Numbered from the stretch's first letter, positions 6,025 to 48,545 are shown. The stretch is 64,000 nucleotides of DNA from Patescibacteria group bacterium (GCA_028716665.1 JAQUPP010000001.1:413046-477045); one strand, 5' to 3'. The notes: generated by a model not told the origin, from the sequence alone. Numbers and translations are program-made.

Positions 6025-6235
6025 AAGCGGGACTAGAATTTGGAGAACCCTCACACCAAACTTAACATTAAACTTTTTATTTTAAACTAATAAAGCCGTA
6101 GGCGTTTCGCTCTACGGCTTTATTAGTTTGGATAATATAACGATGAGTTTGGTGTGCGGGGTTTAAATAAAAGTATTATAAATAATAAAATCGGAAGTTA
6201 AACTTCCGATTTTATTATTTTCTAAATTACTGATT

Positions 6236-7591
6236 TTAGTAAAGGTATCCCCAGGTTTGCAATTTGTCCGAATCTTCAGACCATTTTGATCCGATATCAA
6301 CCCGATAAAACATATTGGGCACCATAATATTTTTAATTCTTGAATAAACTTGTTCTCTGGCGTCGTCCATGGTTGTGCCGGAACCGGTAACAACCAACAA
6401 GCATCCTGAATCACCGGCAACTCGCCAAGCGCCCTCTGTCATTTTAACATCTTCTATATGAATGCCGTCCAAGTTGTCTGGTTTTTTGAAAAGTATCGGT
6501 AAGTCTTTATAAGTTTCAATTACTGATTTATCACTGGTAAAATAAGTTGGAAGCATAATTCTTGTTCCAATTTGAAATCCTTTTTTTGTTTTTAATTCAA
6601 AATTTTCTCCTTTGGCCAGTTTTTCCAGCCATTCGCCGGTTGGAGTGGTTATTCCCTCCAATTGAATTTGAAGGATTGGATAACCGAAGCGAGATGTAAA
6701 TTCAAGGGGATAAATACCTCGTCCATTAACTATACAATTTAAATCAATATAACCGCGATAACCGGATTGCGCCAAGGCGGGTTTCATTTTTTCCAAAGTT
6801 GCTTCAAAAATGGGATTGGTTTTAGCCCAAAATACAGCTGTACCCATTTCTCCGGTAAAAGGACCAAGGTCTCCGGGGAATAATCTTTTGTGTTCAAAAT
6901 TGACAATAACCGGTTTAATGAATTCTTGACCGTTGAAAAATGCTCCTACGGCAATTTCTACACCGGAGACGCATTTTTGAAGTTGGAAGACCGGTGCTTT
7001 TTTTTGCCAAACTTCTTTATTTTTTTCAAGCAAAGCTAAAATGTCGCGGCCATCATCCTCTTGTCCTAAAAATAACAATCCCTTGCCGCCGGACGGAGTA
7101 TTACCGGAAGGTTTAAAAACATAAAGGCCGGGATTGGTTTTAATAAAATTAATTGCCTCGTCATAATTTGAAAAATTATAATGAGGCAGAATGTTAATTC
7201 CGTATTTTTTTAATTCTGTTTGTCCGAATTCGCGATCTATTTCCAATTGATCAGTGTAAACAGAGCCGCCGATAACAGGTTTTCCGGCTTGGCGCAATTT
7301 TTCCGCATCAGGTCCGAATTCCACGTCGTCGAAAATAACAACATCGCACCAATCTACATATTTTTTCCAATCATCAATTTTTTCTACGAATCCGTCATAA
7401 GCATCTGCATCTGATTTGGCTTTAATATAGCATTTAACTTCATGTCCTTCTTTTTTTATTTGCCAAGCCAAATCGCCGCTTAAACTTTCCAATGAAATGA
7501 AAAGAAATTTTAATTTTTTCTTTTCTTGACTTCCATTAGTTTCGGAGATTTTTTCAGAACTGTTATTTTGTTTTTTTATTTCTTCTGTCAT
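6236..7591 (-). CDS. purD: phosphoribosylamine--glycine ligase-like ATP-grasp protein (PurD homologue)
   Basis: ATP-grasp core with HKRLFPGDLGPFTGEMG and NCRFGYP-like motifs alignable to PurD. N-terminus is divergent. Confidence 0.5.
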   Translation of the reverse strand: MTEEIKKQNNSSEKISETNGSQEKKKLKFLFISLESLSGDLAWQIKKEGHEVKCYIKAKSDADAYDGFVEKIDDWKKYVDWCDVVIFDDVEFGPDAEKLRQAGKPVIGGSVYTDQLEIDREFGQTELKKYGINILPHYNFSNYDEAINFIKTNPGLYVFKPSGNTPSGGKGLLFLGQEDDGRDILALLEKNKEVWQKKAPVFQLQKCVSGVEIAVGAFFNGQEFIKPVIVNFEHKRLFPGDLGPFTGEMGTAVFWAKTNPIFEATLEKMKPALAQSGYRGYIDLNCIVNGRGIYPLEFTSRFGYPILQIQLEGITTPTGEWLEKLAKGENFELKTKKGFQIGTRIMLPTYFTSDKSVIETYKDLPILFKKPDNLDGIHIEDVKMTEGAWRVAGDSGCLLVVTGSGTTMDDAREQVYSRIKNIMVPNMFYRVDIGSKWSEDSDKLQTWGYLY

Positions 7592-9024: not shown

Positions 9025-9180
9025 AATAAAAAGTATTGACAAATTTTTATTTTTTTGTTATTATCAAGCGAGTGAGAGAAATGAAAATAATAGATTTTCA
9101 TTTCCGATCCGCCAGTTGGCGGAGCAGATATCAAATGGTTTAATAACCTTTATTATAAAATTAAATAAAAAGGAGGTGAA

Positions 9181-10860: not shown

Positions 10861-10892
10861 AAAAAATATCCGCCGAAAAGGCGGATATTTTT

Positions 10893-11440: not shown

Positions 11441-11473
11441 ATCATTTTGTTAAGACCTGCTTAAAGTTTTAAT

Positions 11474-11544
11474 TGCGGGGGGGGGATTCGAACCCCCAAC
11501 CTCCAGGTTATGGGCCTGGCGAGCTGCCACTGCTCTACCCCGCG
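11474..11544 (-). tRNA. initiator tRNA-fMet (CAT)
   Basis: Begins CGCGGGG and ends CCCCGCA-A (C1:A72 mismatch); alignable base for base with E. coli tRNA-fMet; anticodon CAT. Confidence 0.8.
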
Positions 11545-11795
11545 TCATTAAGAAATCGATTAGTTATTCTTTTCTTTTCCAAATATCCTTTTGTCGATTT
11601 TAGAAAATATTCTCTTTTATAAGCTTCGTTTTTATCGGAATATTCTTCATGATAGACTAACTTCCATGGTCGGCGAAATTTTGTCGCCCAATCTTTGCCA
11701 CGTTGATGTTCACTAAATCTTCTCTGTAAGTTAGATGTGCAACCGATATAAAATTTATTATCTTTTAAACTTTGTAATATATAAACGTAATACAC
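11535..11795 (-). CDS. GIY-YIG nuclease family protein (small, YhbQ/UPF0213-like), copy 1
   Basis: VYIL...KFYIGCT...R..EH motif set. GTG start. The last 10 nt including the stop overlap the 5' end of tRNA-fMet. Confidence 0.8.
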   Translation of the reverse strand: MYYVYILQSLKDNKFYIGCTSNLQRRFSEHQRGKDWATKFRRPWKLVYHEEYSDKNEAYKREYFLKSTKGYLEKKRITNRFLNDAG

Positions 11796-11808
11796 AATAG
11801 ATTTTAAT

Positions 11809-11867
11809 TTATGGGCCTGGCGAGACCCGAAGGGTGGCCCTTGGCCCTGCCACTGCTCTACCCCGCG
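11809..11867 (-). repeat. partial duplicate of tRNA-fMet (positions 1-37) carrying a 22-nt GC-rich double-hairpin insertion
   Basis: CGCGGGGTAGAGCAGTGGCAG-[GGCCAAGGGCCACCCTTCGGGT]-CTCGCCAGGCCCATAA, then divergence from the tRNA. Confidence 0.7.
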
Positions 11868-12118
11868 TCATTAAGAAATCGATTAGTTATTCTTTTCTTT
11901 TCCAAATATCCTTTTGTCGATTTTAGAAAATATTCTCTTTTATAAGCTTCATTTTTATCTGAATATTCTTCATGATAGACTAACTTCCATGGTCGGCGAA
12001 ATTTTGTCGCCCAATCTTTGCCACGTTGATGTTCATTAAATCTTCTCTGCAAATTAGATGTGCAACCGATATAAAATTTATTATCTTTTAAACTTTGTAA
12101 TATATAAACGTAATACAC
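11858..12118 (-). CDS. GIY-YIG nuclease family protein, copy 2 (tandem 323-bp unit)
   Basis: One amino-acid difference from copy 1. Its 3' end overlaps the partial tRNA copy just as copy 1 overlaps the intact tRNA. Confidence 0.8.
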   Translation of the reverse strand: MYYVYILQSLKDNKFYIGCTSNLQRRFNEHQRGKDWATKFRRPWKLVYHEEYSDKNEAYKREYFLKSTKGYLEKKRITNRFLNDAG

Positions 12119-12131
12119 AATAGATTTTAAT

Positions 12132-12190
12132 CTATGGGCCTGGCGAGACCCGAAGGGTGGCCCTTGGCCCTGCCACTGCTCTACCCCGCG
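12132..12190 (-). repeat. second partial tRNA-fMet 5'-half copy with the same 22-nt insertion
   Basis: Same sequence as 11809-11867 apart from one substitution in the anticodon loop; no GIY-YIG gene follows. Confidence 0.7.
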
Positions 12191-12240
12191 TCATTAATCT
12201 ATAATGATACCTTAAATTTAATATTTCAGCAAATTGAATT

Positions 12241-20869: not shown

Positions 20870-20943
20870 CAAAAAGTAATAGTAGAATATAATAAGCAAT
20901 AGAAAAATAAAAAGTTTGCTCATTGGCAGACAAGGGGGATAAA

Positions 20944-23210: not shown

Positions 23211-23286
23211 TTAGAAAATTAAATTCAGACCTCCTGTTTCGACAGGAGGTCTTTTTTATTTATAAAAAAAGTGTAGAATATTAATC

Positions 23287-23556
23287 ATGCCCGCCCAAAT
23301 TTTTTATTACGTATACATTTTGCGCAGTTTAAAAGATAGTAAATTTTATATTGGCTTTACAAAAGATTTAAGAAGAAGACTAGAAGAACACAATAATAAA
23401 ATGTCTACATCTACTAAATCAAGAGCGCCATTTACTTTGGTTTATTATGAAGCATATCTTCATTCAGGAGATGCCAAAGAACGAGAAAGATTTTTTAAAT
23501 CTGGGTGGGGTAGAAATTATATTAAAAAATCACTTAAACGTTATTTATGTCAATAA
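23287..23556 (+). CDS. GIY-YIG nuclease family protein, copy 3
   Basis: YYVYILRS...KFYIGFT motif set. The stop overlaps the murC start. Flanked by the two halves of a 34-nt palindrome. Confidence 0.8.
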   Translation: MPAQIFYYVYILRSLKDSKFYIGFTKDLRRRLEEHNNKMSTSTKSRAPFTLVYYEAYLHSGDAKERERFFKSGWGRNYIKKSLKRYLCQ

Positions 23557-25240: not shown

Positions 25241-25975
25241 ATGTTAACTCAAAGGCAAAATCAATTGCTTAAAACCATTGTCTCTCAATATATTAAAACC
25301 GCGGAGCCGGTTAGTTCAGAGTCATTGGCTGATAAATATAGATTGTCGGCCCAAGGCCGATCCGCCTCGGGCGGAAAAATAAGTCCGGCTACTATTCGCA
25401 ATGAGATGATGGAATTAACCAAAGAAAATTTTTTAATCCAGCCGCATACTTCGGCCGGCCGTATTCCCACTGAGAAGGCCTATCATTATTATATTAAAAA
25501 TTTTTTACAGCAAGAAGAAGTCAGCCAAATTGAAAAAAGAAAATTAAACAGCGCCAGAAAAGAAAATCAGTCTTTGGAAATTTCAGCCAAGAGAATCGGC
25601 GAGAAAATAGCGGAGTTGACCAACGGATTGGTTATTTTGGCTTTTGATAAAGATAATTTTTATTACACCGGCCTTTCTTCCTTGTTTAGCCAACCAGAAT
25701 TCAATCAAATGGAAGTTGTTTATAATGTTTCGCAAATTATAGATCATTTGGATCAAACCGTTGCCAAAATTTTTGACGAAATAGAAAGCAATCACCGCGT
25801 TTTTTTGGGACGAAGCAACCCGTTTGGTGATTTTTGCGGAACAATTTTAATCAAATATCATACACCAAATCAAAAAAGGGGCGTAGTATTGGGTCTTTTG
25901 GGACCGATGAGAATGGATTACAACAGAAATATCGCTTTAATAGAATATGCCAAAGAGATATTGGACAAAGTTTAG
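25241..25975 (+). CDS. hrcA: heat-inducible transcription repressor HrcA
   Basis: N-terminal wHTH alignable to B. subtilis HrcA (SPATIRNEM) with an 11-aa in-frame insertion; CIRCE lies upstream. Confidence 0.85.
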   Translation: MLTQRQNQLLKTIVSQYIKTAEPVSSESLADKYRLSAQGRSASGGKISPATIRNEMMELTKENFLIQPHTSAGRIPTEKAYHYYIKNFLQQEEVSQIEKRKLNSARKENQSLEISAKRIGEKIAELTNGLVILAFDKDNFYYTGLSSLFSQPEFNQMEVVYNVSQIIDHLDQTVAKIFDEIESNHRVFLGRSNPFGDFCGTILIKYHTPNQKRGVVLGLLGPMRMDYNRNIALIEYAKEILDKV

Positions 25976-25992
25976 AAATTAAAAATTTTATT

Positions 25993-26286
25993 ATGCCAGG
26001 TAGTGAAACTTTGATAACGATTATGTTTTATTATGTCTATGTTTTACAAAGTATAAAAAATAATGGCCTTTATGTGGGTTATACTTTAGATTTAAAGAAA
26101 AGATTACAAGAACATAATCGTAAATTAAATTTTTCTACCAAAGCAAATATCCCATGGAAACTTATTCACTATGAAGCCTATCTTAATAAAGACGATGCGC
26201 AACGTCGAGAGAAATATCTCAAAACTTCTCAAGGAGCCAGATTATTAAAGCGCATGCTTAAAGAATATTTTTATAATAATAAATAA
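25993..26286 (+). CDS. GIY-YIG nuclease family protein, copy 4 (between hrcA and grpE)
   Basis: MFYYVYVLQS...LYVGYT motif set; ATG embedded in the left terminal inverted repeat. Confidence 0.7.
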   Translation: MPGSETLITIMFYYVYVLQSIKNNGLYVGYTLDLKKRLQEHNRKLNFSTKANIPWKLIHYEAYLNKDDAQRREKYLKTSQGARLLKRMLKEYFYNNK

Positions 26287-26306
26287 TCAAAGTTCTACTA
26301 CCTGGT

Positions 26307-26837
26307 ATGTCAGATGAAGAAATAAAAAAATTGCAAGAAGAAATCGAATTAATGAAGCAACAAGCGGAAGAATATTTAAACGGCTGGAAAAGAACCAAGG
26401 CCGATTATCTTAATCGCGAAAAAGAAATTGATAAAGAAAAAATTGAATGGATAAAATTCGCCAATTTGGAATTAATTTTGAATTTTTTGCCGATTATGGA
26501 CAGCTTTGATCACTCGGTAAAAAATTTAACGGAAATAGAAAACAGTGGTTTGACAAGCTCACCACGAGATGGTTCGACTTCTTCGACAAGCTCAGGGCAA
26601 GCAAGCTCACCACAAGGCGAGTGGGCAAATGGCGTTTTAAAAATCAAAGACCAATTTGAAAGTTTTTTAAAAGCGCAGGGCGTTGAAAAAATAAAAACTT
26701 TGGGAGAAAAATTCGACCCCATGTTTCACGAAGCAATTGGCAAACAAGGGGAAGAGAATGAAATTGTTGAAGAAATTCAAAGCGGATACGTGATGCACGG
26801 CCGAGTTATCAGACCGGCGAAAGTAATAATTAAGTAA
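26307..26837 (+). CDS. grpE: nucleotide exchange factor GrpE
   Basis: GrpE coiled-coil and beta domain (FLPIMDSFD, FDPMFHEAIG) with a 23-aa in-frame insertion. Confidence 0.85.
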   Translation: MSDEEIKKLQEEIELMKQQAEEYLNGWKRTKADYLNREKEIDKEKIEWIKFANLELILNFLPIMDSFDHSVKNLTEIENSGLTSSPRDGSTSSTSSGQASSPQGEWANGVLKIKDQFESFLKAQGVEKIKTLGEKFDPMFHEAIGKQGEENEIVEEIQSGYVMHGRVIRPAKVIIK

Positions 26838-26868: not shown

Positions 26869-28809
26869 ATGTCAAAAATTATAGGAATTGACTTAGGAAC
26901 ATCTAACTCAGCTGCTTCTTACATGGAAGCGGGCAAATCAAAAATAATTCCCTCAGCCGAAGGGACAACTTTAGTTGGCGGAAAAGCTTTTCCGTCATAC
27001 GTCGCTTTCACAAAAGAAGGCGAACTTTTAGTCGGTGAACCGGCTCGTCGTCAAGCAGTGGCTAATCCGGAAGGCACAATTTTGGCCGCAAAAAGAAAAA
27101 TGGGCACTGACTTCAAATATAATATTTTCGGCAAAGAATACACGCCTCAGCAAATTTCCGCTTTTATTTTGCAAAAAATAAAAAAAGACGCGGAAATGTA
27201 TTTGGGCGATAAAGTGGAAAAAGCGGTTGTGACCGTGCCGGCTTATTTTAATGACGCGCAAAGACAAGCAACCAAAGATGCCGGAGCGATTGCCGGACTT
27301 GAAATCGTCCGTTTGGTTAATGAACCGACCGCGGCCAGTTTGGCTTACGGTTTGGATAAAGTTCAGGAAAAAGATCAGCAAGTTTTGGTTTTTGATCTCG
27401 GCGGCGGAACATTGGATGTGACGATTATGAATTTCGGCCAAGGCGTTTTTGAAGTTCGTTCCACTTCCGGCGACACCAAACTCGGCGGCACGGATATGGA
27501 TGAATCTTTGATAAATTATATAATTGATGAATTTAAAAAAGAGCAAGGCGTTGATTTGAAAGCTGACAAAATGGTAACCCAGAGAGTCAAGGAAGCGGCT
27601 GAAAAAGCGAAAATTGAATTGTCTTCAGCTCTGGAAACGGAAATTAATTTGCCGTTTATTACCGCCACCAACGAAGGACCGAAACATTTATTGATGAAAA
27701 TCACCCGGGCGAAATTGGAAGAATTGGTTAAACCGATTGTTGATCGCTGTCGTGTTTCAATTGAACAGGCGATTTCAGACGCCAAACTTACCCCCGCTAA
27801 TATTGAAAAAGTTATTTTAGTCGGCGGTCCGACCAGAATGCCGATTGTCCAGAAATTTATTGAAAATATTTTCGGCCCGAAAATCGCTCGAGGCGTTGAC
27901 CCGATGGAATGCGTGGCCATGGGCGCGGCAATTCAAGGCGCGATTTTAGCCGGCGAAACAGAAGTCAAAGACGTTCTATTATTGGACGTCACGCCGCTTA
28001 CTTTAGGCATTGAAACTTTAGGCGGAGTAATGACGCCGATTATTGACCGCAATGCGACTATTCCAACTTCAAAATCTCAGGTTTTTTCTACTGCAGCTGA
28101 CAATCAAACTTCAGTGGAAATTCATGTTTTGCAGGGAGAAAGACCGATGGCCGGCGACAACCGGACTTTAGGTAGATTTATTTTGGACGGCATTCCGCCG
28201 TCTCCAAGAGGCATTCCTCAAGTTGAAGTCGGTTTTGATTTGGACGCAAACGGTATTTTAACCGTCACGGCAAAAGATAAGGCCACTTCAAAATCTCAGC
28301 ATATTACCATTAAAGATACTTCCGCGCTTTCCAAAGAAGAAATTGAAAAAATGAAAAAAGCAGCCGAGCAATTTGCCGCTGAAGACAGAAATAAAAAAGA
28401 AATAATCGAATTGAGAAATCAATCCGACACTTTAATTTATACTTGCGAAAAAAGTTTAAAAGACGGCGGCGATAAAATTCCGGCTGATGTCAAAAAGCAA
28501 GTTGAAGACAAGGTTGCTGAATTGAAAAAAGTCAAAGACGCGAATGATATTGAAGTGATTAAAAAAGCGATTCAAGATTTGGGCGACACGGTTCAAAAAA
28601 TCGGCGCGGCGATGTATGGTTCGACCTCTTCGACAGGCTCAGAGCAAGCAGGCTCACCACAAGATGGTTCGGCCTCTTCGACAGGCTCAGAGCAAGCAGG
28701 CTCACCACAAGCCCCGGGTGCTCAACCAGAAGCCGGTCCGACAGAAGAAAAAAAGAAGGATGAAGGACCGATTGAAGGGGAATATACGGAAGAAAAACCT
28801 AAATCCTAA
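26869..28809 (+). CDS. dnaK: molecular chaperone DnaK (Hsp70)
   Basis: [28 protein letters not shown] signatures; 646 aa with two tandem 16-aa repeats in the C-terminal tail. Confidence 0.95.
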
Positions 28810-42491: not shown

Positions 42492-43817
42492 ATGGATAAA
42501 AAATCATTGGAAATTGTAATGTTCAATATGTCGAGCTTTTCAGAATGGGAAGGCGGCATTGTGAATCGCAATTATCATATTTTCAATAAATTATCGCAAG
42601 ATGAAAAAGTAAAACGGATAATTGCCGTTGATTTTTTGCCTTTTACTTTCAGAAGAGCTTTGAGAAATTATTTGGAAAATATTTTGAAAACCACAAATTA
42701 CAAATCTAATGCAGACATAAAAGTTACAAATATTTATCGGGATTTTACCACTAAATGCGTGAAAATTGTTGGATTGGCGCCGGCTGAAATTTATGTTTTT
42801 TCAACCATTGATTCAATATTTACCCGCCCAAATTTTTTGAAGAAAAATTTAGGCGGTTTTTCTTCTCATCAAATAGTTTTAAAAAAATTAAACAAGATAT
42901 TGATTAAAATCAACAAGAATCAGCCGGAAAAAACCAAGAGAGTTATTTGGTCATATTTTCCGATGTTTGTTGACTATTTCTCGGCCCAAGGCCGATCCGC
43001 CTCGGGCGGAAATGGCATACCCGCTGATTTGACGGTTTTCGACGCAGTGGACAATTGGATTGAACATCCTTCTTTCGCGCGCTATAAAAAATTATTAGAG
43101 AAAAATTATAAAATAATTTCCCAAAAAAGCGATTTAATTTTCACCGTAGCGGAAAATTTGGTGGAATTTTTTAAAAATTTAGGCAGGAACAAAGATGTCT
43201 ATTGGATCGCCAACGGCGTTGAACCCAAGCATTTTGCCAAGGAACAGTCTGTGCTTAAAAATGATCCCATTTTAATGATTTCTCGTCCGATTATCGGTTA
43301 TGTCGGGACAATTCAAAACAGGGTTGATTTTAATCTTTTGGAATATTTGGCTCAGCAAAATCCTGATAAATCTTTTGTCTTGATTGGTCCGCTTTGGCCG
43401 GTCTTTTTGAGAAAATTGCGCCGACCGACTACGGAAATAAAAAAATTGAAAAAATACAAAAATATTCATTTATTGGGCCGCCGACCATATGATTTGACAC
43501 CGGCTTATATTAAATTTTTTGACGTGGCGATTAATCCTCATAAACTCGATGAATTTATAAAATACACAGATTCTTTAAAGGTTTTGGAATATTTGGCTTG
43601 CGGTATGCCAGTGGTAACTACGCCGCCCTCGGGCGTGGAAAAATTTTCTCACCTTCTTTATATTGCCGCAGATTACCAAGATTTTAATAAAAATATTGAG
43701 ACAGCTCTTGCCGAAAATCAGCCGGAATTAAAAGAGAAAAGATTAATAAGAATAAAAGAAGAGGATTGGGACAATAAACTTTTAGAAATGATGAATATTT
43801 TAAAAACTAAGATTTAA
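42492..43817 (+). CDS. glycosyltransferase family 1 (GT4-like)
   Basis: C-terminal LEYLACGMPVVTTP. Contains the 34-nt palindrome and the 32-nt double-hairpin insert, both in frame. Confidence 0.55.
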   Translation: MDKKSLEIVMFNMSSFSEWEGGIVNRNYHIFNKLSQDEKVKRIIAVDFLPFTFRRALRNYLENILKTTNYKSNADIKVTNIYRDFTTKCVKIVGLAPAEIYVFSTIDSIFTRPNFLKKNLGGFSSHQIVLKKLNKILIKINKNQPEKTKRVIWSYFPMFVDYFSAQGRSASGGNGIPADLTVFDAVDNWIEHPSFARYKKLLEKNYKIISQKSDLIFTVAENLVEFFKNLGRNKDVYWIANGVEPKHFAKEQSVLKNDPILMISRPIIGYVGTIQNRVDFNLLEYLAQQNPDKSFVLIGPLWPVFLRKLRRPTTEIKKLKKYKNIHLLGRRPYDLTPAYIKFFDVAINPHKLDEFIKYTDSLKVLEYLACGMPVVTTPPSGVEKFSHLLYIAADYQDFNKNIETALAENQPELKEKRLIRIKEEDWDNKLLEMMNILKTKI

Positions 43818-48092: not shown

Positions 48093-48207
48093 CCTTACGG
48101 GCGAAGAAAATAATTTGCCAAATTTTGAAAATTTGTTATAATAATTTTAATATTGCGGGATCGTCCCTCGGCCGTAGCCAGTAGGCTACTGCCTACGGGC
48201 GAGGCTA

Positions 48208-48462
48208 ATGGTAAATAAAACAATGCATACAATTTATGTTTTAAGAAGTCTGAAAGATGATAATTTATATATAGGCTGTACTTCTGATTTACAGAAGAGA
48301 TTAAGAGAACATAGAAATAAAAAAGTTTTTTCTACTCGCAATAGGTTGCCAATGAAGTTAATTTATTTTGAAAATTACCCTGATAAATATGAAGCTTATA
48401 GAATGGAAAGATTTTATAAAACCGCTAAAGGTAAAAAAATAATTAAAAACAAAATAATATAA
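48208..48462 (+). CDS. GIY-YIG nuclease family protein, copy 5 (immediately 5' of tRNA-Gln)
   Basis: IYVLRS...LYIGCT motif set; flanked by 12-nt direct repeats TGCGGGATCGTC. Confidence 0.75.
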   Translation: MVNKTMHTIYVLRSLKDDNLYIGCTSDLQKRLREHRNKKVFSTRNRLPMKLIYFENYPDKYEAYRMERFYKTAKGKKIIKNKII

Positions 48463-48469
48463 TAAATAA

Positions 48470-48545
48470 TGCGGGATCGTCTAATGGTAGGACTCCAGCC
48501 TTTGGAGCTGGCTATGATGGTTCGAATCCATCTCCCGCAGCCAAA
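48470..48545 (+). tRNA. tRNA-Gln (TTG)
   Basis: U1-A72 acceptor typical of bacterial tRNA-Gln, anticodon loop CTTTGGA, GGTTCGAATCC T-arm, encoded CCA. Confidence 0.8.

Follow-up and report, generated by a model that had tools for sequence, protein, structure and literature searches.

INTRODUCTION

Allomyces and chytrid mitochondria contain double-hairpin elements (DHEs), and sponge mitochondria contain repetitive hairpin-forming elements. Both kinds are short, GC-rich and built of two hairpins, and both are dispersed in intergenic DNA, in rRNA genes and occasionally in protein genes. Their length reportedly varies from 26 to 79 nt, and to our knowledge no transposase is associated with them. 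The Allomyces elements lack flanking duplications (PMC2800124). In the GC clusters of yeast mitochondria, substitutions gather in the loops, suggesting structural constraint, and one of them, GC42, is 42 nt long, lies mostly between genes and has a duplicated AG target on its sides (PMC4478555). These mitochondrial repeats are the nearest analogues of the bacterial repeat described here (30-mer), which resembles DHEs in shortness, GC richness, paired hairpins, dispersal and lack of flanking duplications, and resembles GC42 as a GC-rich, apparently mobile hairpin repeat with variation concentrated in the loops. DHEs, however, are mitochondrial and lineage-restricted, whereas the 30-mer is bacterial, strictly 30 nt long, near-identical from one phylum to another and located for the most part in protein genes, in frame; unlike GC42, it lacks a duplication, has a target that is T-rich on the left and A-rich on the right, and places about two-thirds of its copies in ORFs.

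A bacterial precedent is provided by the Rickettsia palindromic elements (RPEs), which are reported to be palindromic repeats lying in frame within protein genes, including essential ones, where they are translated and tolerated as surface additions. In-frame palindromic insertion is thus common to both, but RPEs measure approximately 100-150 bp, are found only in Rickettsia and comprise several unrelated sequence families, in contrast to 30 bp and many phyla for the 30-mer. Only the 30-mer specifies the same peptide from both orientations.

REP/REPIN repeats, mobilized by RAYT (Y1 HUH) transposases whose genes typically have REPs on either side, and palindromes derived from IS200/IS605 are short GC-rich hairpins, often in inverted pairs, that are recognized as folded single-stranded DNA and leave no target duplication. 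The two 15-nt palindromic units of the 30-mer agree with the REP/REPIN definition of a 20-40 bp GC-rich imperfect palindrome, and its empty and filled sites, like those of IS200/IS605, show no target-site duplication. REP elements carry GTAG or CGTC tags (PMC3733652); neither head is present in the flank and element logo of the 30-mer. Furthermore, REPs are extragenic, whereas the 30-mer lies largely inside ORFs, and its hairpins abut the junctions with no guide or cleavage spacer, unlike those of REP and IS200/IS605. IS200/IS605 ends as such, with a tetra- or pentanucleotide target and asymmetric subterminal hairpins and spacers, do not describe an element that is dyad-symmetric and has only a 3-nt T/A preference. 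By analogy, the REP/RAYT system would nevertheless be the closest mechanistic model and offers a plausible, indeed the most plausible, way of movement. MITEs such as Correia and NEMIS are also non-autonomous and carry inverted terminal units, but they span 50-500 bp, contain internal sequence, generate target-site duplications and have an identifiable parent IS, none of which holds for the 30-mer. The missing duplication and the complete lack of internal sequence do not fit a MITE derived from a DDE transposon.

RESULTS AND DISCUSSION

Two identical copies in the window

The DNA analyzed (the window) is a 64,000-nt stretch from a Patescibacteria group bacterium, with a GC content of 34.8%. TCGGCCCAAGGCCGATCCGCCTCGGGCGGAAA is present exactly at 25346-25377 and 42981-43012, in both cases on the + strand, and 100 dinucleotide-preserving shuffles gave no match to this 32-mer with up to three mismatches permitted. 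The first copy lies in hrcA (heat-inducible repressor, PF01628; 25241..25975, + strand) and the second in a gene for a GT4-type glycosyltransferase (GT; PF00534/PF13692/PF13524; 42492..43817, + strand), and the reading frame of the element is identical in the two ORFs. The original prediction, which placed the 32-mer in frame in these two genes, is borne out by exact matches inside long ORFs, but its estimate of 32 nt and 11 residues has to be reduced to 30 nt and 10 residues (SAQGRSASGG), the trailing AA being host sequence. This dinucleotide starts a Lys codon in hrcA that is kept in insert-free HrcA orthologues, and in the GT gene it belongs to an Asn codon that is also found at the empty site. 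The element proper occupies 25346..25375 (+) in hrcA, encoding HrcA residues 36-45, and 42981..43010 (+) in the GT gene, where it is identical, encodes the same decapeptide and is placed between TTC (Phe) and AAT (Asn).

In the hrcA copy, hairpin 1 (25346-25360, +) reads TCGGCC-CAA-GGCCGA and hairpin 2 (25361-25375, +) reads TCCGCC-TCG-GGCGGA. Fold prediction for each strand of the window copies yields a pair of abutting hairpins, each with a 6-bp stem and a 3-nt loop, exactly as had been proposed, with a predicted energy of -13 kcal/mol for DNA (z = -3.9) and about -19 kcal/mol for RNA. An Rfam scan of the window at gathering thresholds returned four tRNAs and nothing else. An intrinsic terminator was considered and rejected, as the 30-mer is followed by A-rich sequence with no T-run and is located inside ORFs. 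Two intergenic single hairpins elsewhere in the window (9108-9123 and 10869-10885) have TCCGCC/GGCGGA stems with loops of 4 and 5 nt; the second, with an A-run and a T-run on its sides, resembles a bidirectional terminator.

Evidence for precise insertion

An alignment of 27 Patescibacteria HrcA proteins reveals that the 10 residues are missing from 24, while the downstream Lys-Ile-Ser belongs to the host. The three carriers are the window protein, a 93%-identical one (P0001, locus L001) and a 54%-identical one (P0002, locus L002). The hrcA copy recurs, with point differences, in four independent assemblies from different samples. For the glycosyltransferase, the insert is present in a 96%-identical orthologue and absent from a 92%-identical one (loci L124/L125), whose empty site reads TAT TTC/AAC AAA, compared with TAT TTC, the 30 nt and AAT GGC at the filled site. 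This pair indicates that the inserted unit is 30 nt, placed between codons with no target-site duplication. The GT copy of strain L235, which shares about 89% nucleotide identity, is identical to that of the window. Finally, the decapeptide in the F1-ATPase β subunit (AtpD) is an insertion relative to every solved F1-β structure. Judged from these alignments, both window copies are true insertions, precise and lacking target duplication. The protein alignments and the empty GT site thus agree with the insertion originally claimed; the opposite case, a 32-mer confined to two sites with residues common to the orthologues, was checked and did not hold.

The GT site, immediately after the residues DYF, is also occupied in distant orthologues: L127 has a canonical copy, L128, P0126 and P0149 have decayed copies, and L126 has a single 15-nt unit. 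Copies therefore decay in some lineages. Among three strains that are approximately 88% identical, L234 is empty at this site, L128 retains its decayed 30-mer, and L233 contains an unrelated GC-rich insert of 69 nt. The latter, also in frame after DYF, was observed in the GT gene of L233 (GCA_018896315.1) and again in P0132; L233 additionally has a 42-nt insert elsewhere that holds one TCCTGC-GAA-GCAGGA hairpin. Shared occupancy (L002 for hrcA; L126, L127, L128 and P0149 for GT) means either that the few loops that tolerate the element have been entered repeatedly, or that the insertions are ancient, have been under strong constraint and have been lost precisely on several occasions. In strains with about 10% divergence in the flanks, only 1 of 60 element positions has changed, against roughly 6 expected by our estimate, which suggests constraint, homogenization or recent arrival. 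A passive transposon would not usually stay near-identical in hosts of 32-60% GC, and this could point instead to a templated or function-constrained origin.

Architecture of the element

As read from the aligned copies, the unit consists of two abutting 15-nt hairpins in inverted orientation with zero internal sequence. Its general form is YCNNCC-RRA-GGNNGR followed by YCNNCC-TYY-GGNNGR, and the consensus is TCCGCC-RRA-GGCGGA followed by TCCGCC-TYY-GGCGGA, of which stem 1 of the window genome is a compensated variant (TCGGCC/GGCCGA). Apical CC-NNN-GG is nearly invariant. Among the matches listed, loop position 9 is A in 95% and loop position 22 is T in 95%, so that the two units are almost always inverted; the remaining loop positions are free.

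Several observations show that the stems are kept by compensatory change while the loops vary. The hrcA copy of L001 has a single C>T change that leaves a G.T pair, and that of L002 has exchanged TCGGCC/GGCCGA for TCCGCC/GGCGGA by two compensating changes, G>C and C>G. Over all loci examined, 10 non-canonical 15-mers adjacent to a canonical unit are fully paired and 11 are paired at five of six positions, compared with an expectation of 0.6% for random 15-mers. Stem variants include TCGGCC/GGCCGA, CCAGCC/GGCTGG, CCCTCC/GGAGGG, TCCTCC/GGAGGA, TCAGCC/GGCTGA, CTGGCC/GGCCAG and CCCGCC/GGCGGG. A single long hairpin of 30-36 nt was rejected as the conserved fold of the family because these variants destroy it and keep just the two local stems. 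For the canonical symmetric variant with T/A flanks, the long hairpin is nonetheless the preferred predicted fold, so the two-hairpin form is less certain as the active fold of that variant.

All loci examined together hold 251 elements with two units of 6-3-6 form, and no other stem-length class exceeds chance. Single 15-nt units are rare in these loci, and neither arrays of three or more units, nor longer versions with cargo, nor single units parted by cargo were found in them. At L029 (~7420-7480), one 30-mer is apparently nested in hairpin 2 of another: CCCGCC-AGA-GGCGGG precedes TCCGCC-TTG, which is separated from its GGCGGA by TCCGCC-TGG-GGCGGA and TCCGCC-TTG-GGCGGA.

Family size, hosts and target preference

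A scan with TCSGCYNNNGGCSGATCCGCCNNNGGCGGA over one genome per species located at least 120 loci, all matches being metagenome-assembled genomes (MAGs) or metagenomic contigs. About half of the matches listed are Patescibacteria/CPR (candidate phyla radiation); the others include Omnitrophota, Kiritimatiellae, Lentisphaerae, Verrucomicrobiota, Planctomycetales, Ignavibacteria, Chloroflexota and further groups. The Ignavibacteria copies fall within the C-terminal domains of type IX secretion (T9SS), on contigs that exceed 1.6 Mb. The exact window variant is present in 102 metagenome stretches that represent approximately 91 distinct contexts on contigs of 32-60% GC. Overall, copies have entered hundreds of different genes, essential ones among them, in uncultivated bacteria of several phyla. 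With the selecting copy of each locus left out, there are about 0.3 copies per 10 kb, which equals the density of the window. The proposed family of tiny, GC-rich palindromes that colonize coding genes does exist and is far larger than was guessed; the accompanying restriction to an AT-rich genome fails, as locus GC among the genome matches listed ranges from 0.30 to 0.70 and hosts belong to several phyla.

Target preference is confined to 3 nt on either side of the element. In the matches listed, T frequencies in the left flank are.60/.83/.61 and A frequencies in the right flank are.61/.83/.60, with background values farther out. For the asymmetric window variant, the A-rich side at GGCGGA is strong (0.69/0.84/0.58) and the variant-stem side is weaker. 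The same T-rich/A-rich preference (TTY on the left, RAA-like on the right) is seen in copies outside long ORFs, hence it is not a codon effect.

The family appears to have no earlier description. Full-text searches with the DNA core and the peptides found none, in a literature coverage that leaves out most subscription journals; the only matches were BamHI cloning primers and the mitochondrial or REP analogues. In a Kiritimatiellae MAG (L008, 4569-4752 and 6390-6572), the 30-mer is located within an intergenic composite repeat of ~185 nt, beside a GTCATTCCGAGCGTAGCGAGGAAT-type module, which suggests mosaic assembly of hairpin modules in non-CPR hosts.

Reading frame and protein context

Of roughly 130 sites in the matches listed, 81 are inside ORFs of at least 450 nt, and 71 of these (88%) are read in frame 0 as S-A-x-G-G-S-A-x-G-G. 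The other frames are represented by RRRRIRLRR (n = 6) and PPxADPPxAE (n = 4). Junctions that resemble the target, taken from the long ORFs of these loci, predict a between-codon share of 43% (p = 8e-17), so target codon usage alone was discarded as the cause of the bias. This excess over site availability indicates that the element is translated and has been filtered by selection. Owing to dyad symmetry, the same type of peptide arises in either orientation and only the two loop codons differ. Canonical copies prefer the orientation with the less hydrophobic loop residues (36 vs 14), and the window variant is read as SAQGRSASGG in 65 cases and as SARGGSALGR in 9.

In the AlphaFold (AF2) model of the window's HrcA (pLDDT 88), the insert is disordered and forms the loop that connects helix 26-37 to recognition helix 49-61. 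Copies occupy loop regions, as seen in the wHTH turn of HrcA and the N-terminal domain of AtpD. Hosts include AtpD and HrcA and, as their conserved motifs suggest, DnaJ (in its G/F region) and aminoacyl-tRNA synthetase genes, namely one for an aspartyl-tRNA synthetase, one for a class-I synthetase and one that is valyl-tRNA-synthetase-like. The chromosomal settings comprise hrcA-grpE-dnaK, murC and contigs of more than 1 Mb. We infer that the 30-mer is selfish DNA, translated and tolerated rather than useful to its host.

How the element may move

The best explanation is a non-autonomous mobile repeat of 30 bp that is recognized through its hairpins, to which we assign a probability of roughly 0.7. 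Neither a mobilizing enzyme nor a full-length parent element or transposition intermediate was found in the loci examined, and mobility is accordingly deduced from presence/absence patterns. No recurrent nuclease or transposase gene lies within 2.5 kb of the copies, where ORF clusters represent housekeeping families only and where neither a RAYT nor a TnpA gene was seen. Any mobilizing activity would thus act in trans. Carriage by phages or plasmids was rejected: PLSDB and INPHARED, like the E. coli genomes, returned no match, and 2.9 million viral contigs returned two. One of the two, on an IMG/VR contig (L232, 390-419), closes the ORF of a group II intron reverse transcriptase and provides its final codons (SALGGSASGGK, then stop).

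The preferred model for movement of such a repeat, drawn by analogy with REP/RAYT and IS200/IS605, is recognition of folded single-stranded DNA, as suggested by conservation of structure only, by the lack of target duplication and by the meeting of flanks and element ends at the hairpin feet. A trans-acting, structure-specific enzyme would recognize the folded hairpins, of which apical CC-RRA-GG is the most conserved part. It would cut and join at their feet, which bring the two flanks together with the two ends of the element, and the excised single-strand circle would form a closed 12-bp dumbbell. The sign of GC skew on the element strand was 39 vs 29 in these short loci, which is not significant. 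A bolder form of this model remains tentative and, in our estimate, rather doubtful as a whole: the 30-mer would be the smallest known mobile DNA, moving as a folded single strand by way of an undiscovered hairpin-specific enzyme or, with no dedicated enzyme, through DNA uptake and integration at AT-rich gaps, and crossing phyla among uncultivated groundwater and sediment bacteria, with its dyad symmetry an adaptation that yields one and the same harmless Ser/Ala/Gly decapeptide whichever way it is inserted.

Capture of an oligonucleotide during repair would dispense with a dedicated transposase. A stable, nuclease-resistant hairpin fragment, originating from degraded DNA that was taken up or from the carried template of some system, would enter breaks or replication gaps at AT-rich sites by ligation or annealing and so spread among phyla of one habitat. 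The missing transposase and target duplication, the identical 30-mers in ~91 contexts of 32-60% GC, and the restriction to environmental uncultivated lineages, with nothing in the plasmid, phage and E. coli collections, are all consistent with such an origin. DNA triloops of the C-GNA-G and C-RRA-G type that close GC stems are, moreover, exceptionally stable. The strict 30-nt architecture and constant inverted orientation, however, look like recognition by a specific enzyme, and single units are rare, making capture an improbable source of the family.

We consider it similarly unlikely that the 30-mer is a nucleic-acid signal kept by the host and spread by recombination rather than transposition, whether as a structure in mRNA or ssDNA or as a palindrome bound by a protein, with a role in pausing, stability, uptake or chromosome organization. 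Compensatory conservation of the stems, a rate of change below that of the flanks and conservation of the sequence across phyla are what such a signal would show. Its position within genes is nonetheless arbitrary and differs from gene to gene, copies decay in L128 and P0126, and close relatives lack copies with no visible compensation. The sense-strand bias in mismatch types that an RNA role would leave is absent, G.U and A.C mismatches showing no pattern in the few cases at hand. A sequence-specific dsDNA site is unlikely because compensatory changes alter the sequence, and the strong filtering of frame and orientation argues for a cost that is minimized rather than for signal placement.

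GIY-YIG cassettes and other repeats of the window

The window is rich in mobile GIY-YIG endonuclease genes, which raises the question of whether the hairpin inserts are their footprints or by-products. An HMM built from the window's own copies detects five ORFs in these 64 kb, compared with 10 in approximately 1.5 Mb of other element-bearing loci; the five small ORFs are gained and lost between strains, and one lies 650 nt downstream of the hrcA insert. At single loci this origin is largely refuted, however: L001 has the hrcA insert but lacks the cassette, L125, in which a cassette follows the GT gene, lacks the insert, and GIY-YIG genes are not among the recurrent neighbors of the element. 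In these two strain comparisons, gain and loss of the cassettes are independent of those of the hairpin inserts. The suggested co-occurrence with GIY-YIG loci therefore has no local counterpart, and we regard a GIY-YIG by-product as highly improbable. An ancestral or convergent Ser/Ala/Gly linker motif, or an assembly artefact, can practically be dismissed, for although the peptide is linker-like, its synonymous positions are fixed, the DNA is palindromic and recurs in other frames and in intergenic sequence, orthologues lack the insert, the empty site exists, and the hrcA copy is supported by the four independent assemblies.

The small GIY-YIG genes of the window include 23266-23553, 25831-26283 and 48178-48459, with counterparts at L124 1610-1918 and L125 4102-4410, and they vary in presence between strains that are ~90% identical. 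The 314-nt cassette at 25997-26310 is absent in L001, the cassette after the GT gene of L124/L125 is absent from the window and L235, and one GIY-YIG copy adjoins tRNA-Gln (48470-48543). A tandem array of 323-nt units (11524-12197, genes on the - strand) is positioned upstream of the intact tRNA-fMet gene (11473-11544). Each unit contains an 86-aa GIY-YIG ORF (11535-11795, 11858-12118) and a tRNA-fMet 5' half that reaches to the anticodon, and the array looks like the outcome of repeated insertion or duplication of a GIY-YIG cassette carrying a replacement tRNA half.

A 22-nt insert, ACCC-GAA-GGGT followed by GGCC-CTT-GGCC, is found in a displaced 5' half-copy of tRNA-fMet (11825..11846, +) and, identically, in the next half-copy (12148..12169, +). 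It was thought to be related to the hairpin inserts, and the similarity in design stands, since the two-mini-hairpin layout and apical CC-GAA-GG are common to both. Membership of the family does not: its stems are 4 bp long, its target is not flanked by T-rich and A-rich sequence, and the 22-mer is absent from all 232 loci examined for it. A search of all loci for paired 4-3-4 units returned the two tRNA copies and two others, near the chance level of one in shuffled sequence. Kinship with the 30-mer is thus possible but unsupported.

Other repeats differ from the 30-mer in kind. An in-frame repeat of ~48 nt, coding for similar peptides, is common to grpE (26535-26612) and the 3' end of dnaK (28601-28711); it is not palindromic, is missing in the relative L001 and occurs in no other locus examined. 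L001 in turn has a 154-nt GC-rich insert (6069-6222) with several hairpin-capable segments in the grpE-dnaK interval, an insert that the window lacks. A conserved leader, AAAAAGTCTGCTTATCGGCAGACAGGGAGGAAAAATG, occurs six times, at window positions 20909, 33270, 35507, 37621, 55444 and 57029, each copy a short hairpin followed directly by a Shine-Dalgarno sequence and a start codon.

CONCLUSIONS

When MAG proteins are annotated or aligned, SAxGGSAxGG inserts that recur should not be taken as signals of homology. The putative mobilizing enzyme may be of use for inserting very short sequences, and the 30-mer itself offers a clean natural system for hairpin-directed insertion with no target duplication, and can mark the exchange of DNA between uncultivated lineages, CPR included. 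If the mobile reading is true, mobile DNA would reach down to a smaller size than has been recognized, and essential, highly conserved proteins such as F1-β, aminoacyl-tRNA synthetases, DnaJ and HrcA would be dotted with one standard decapeptide, left by a DNA parasite that several phyla have in common.
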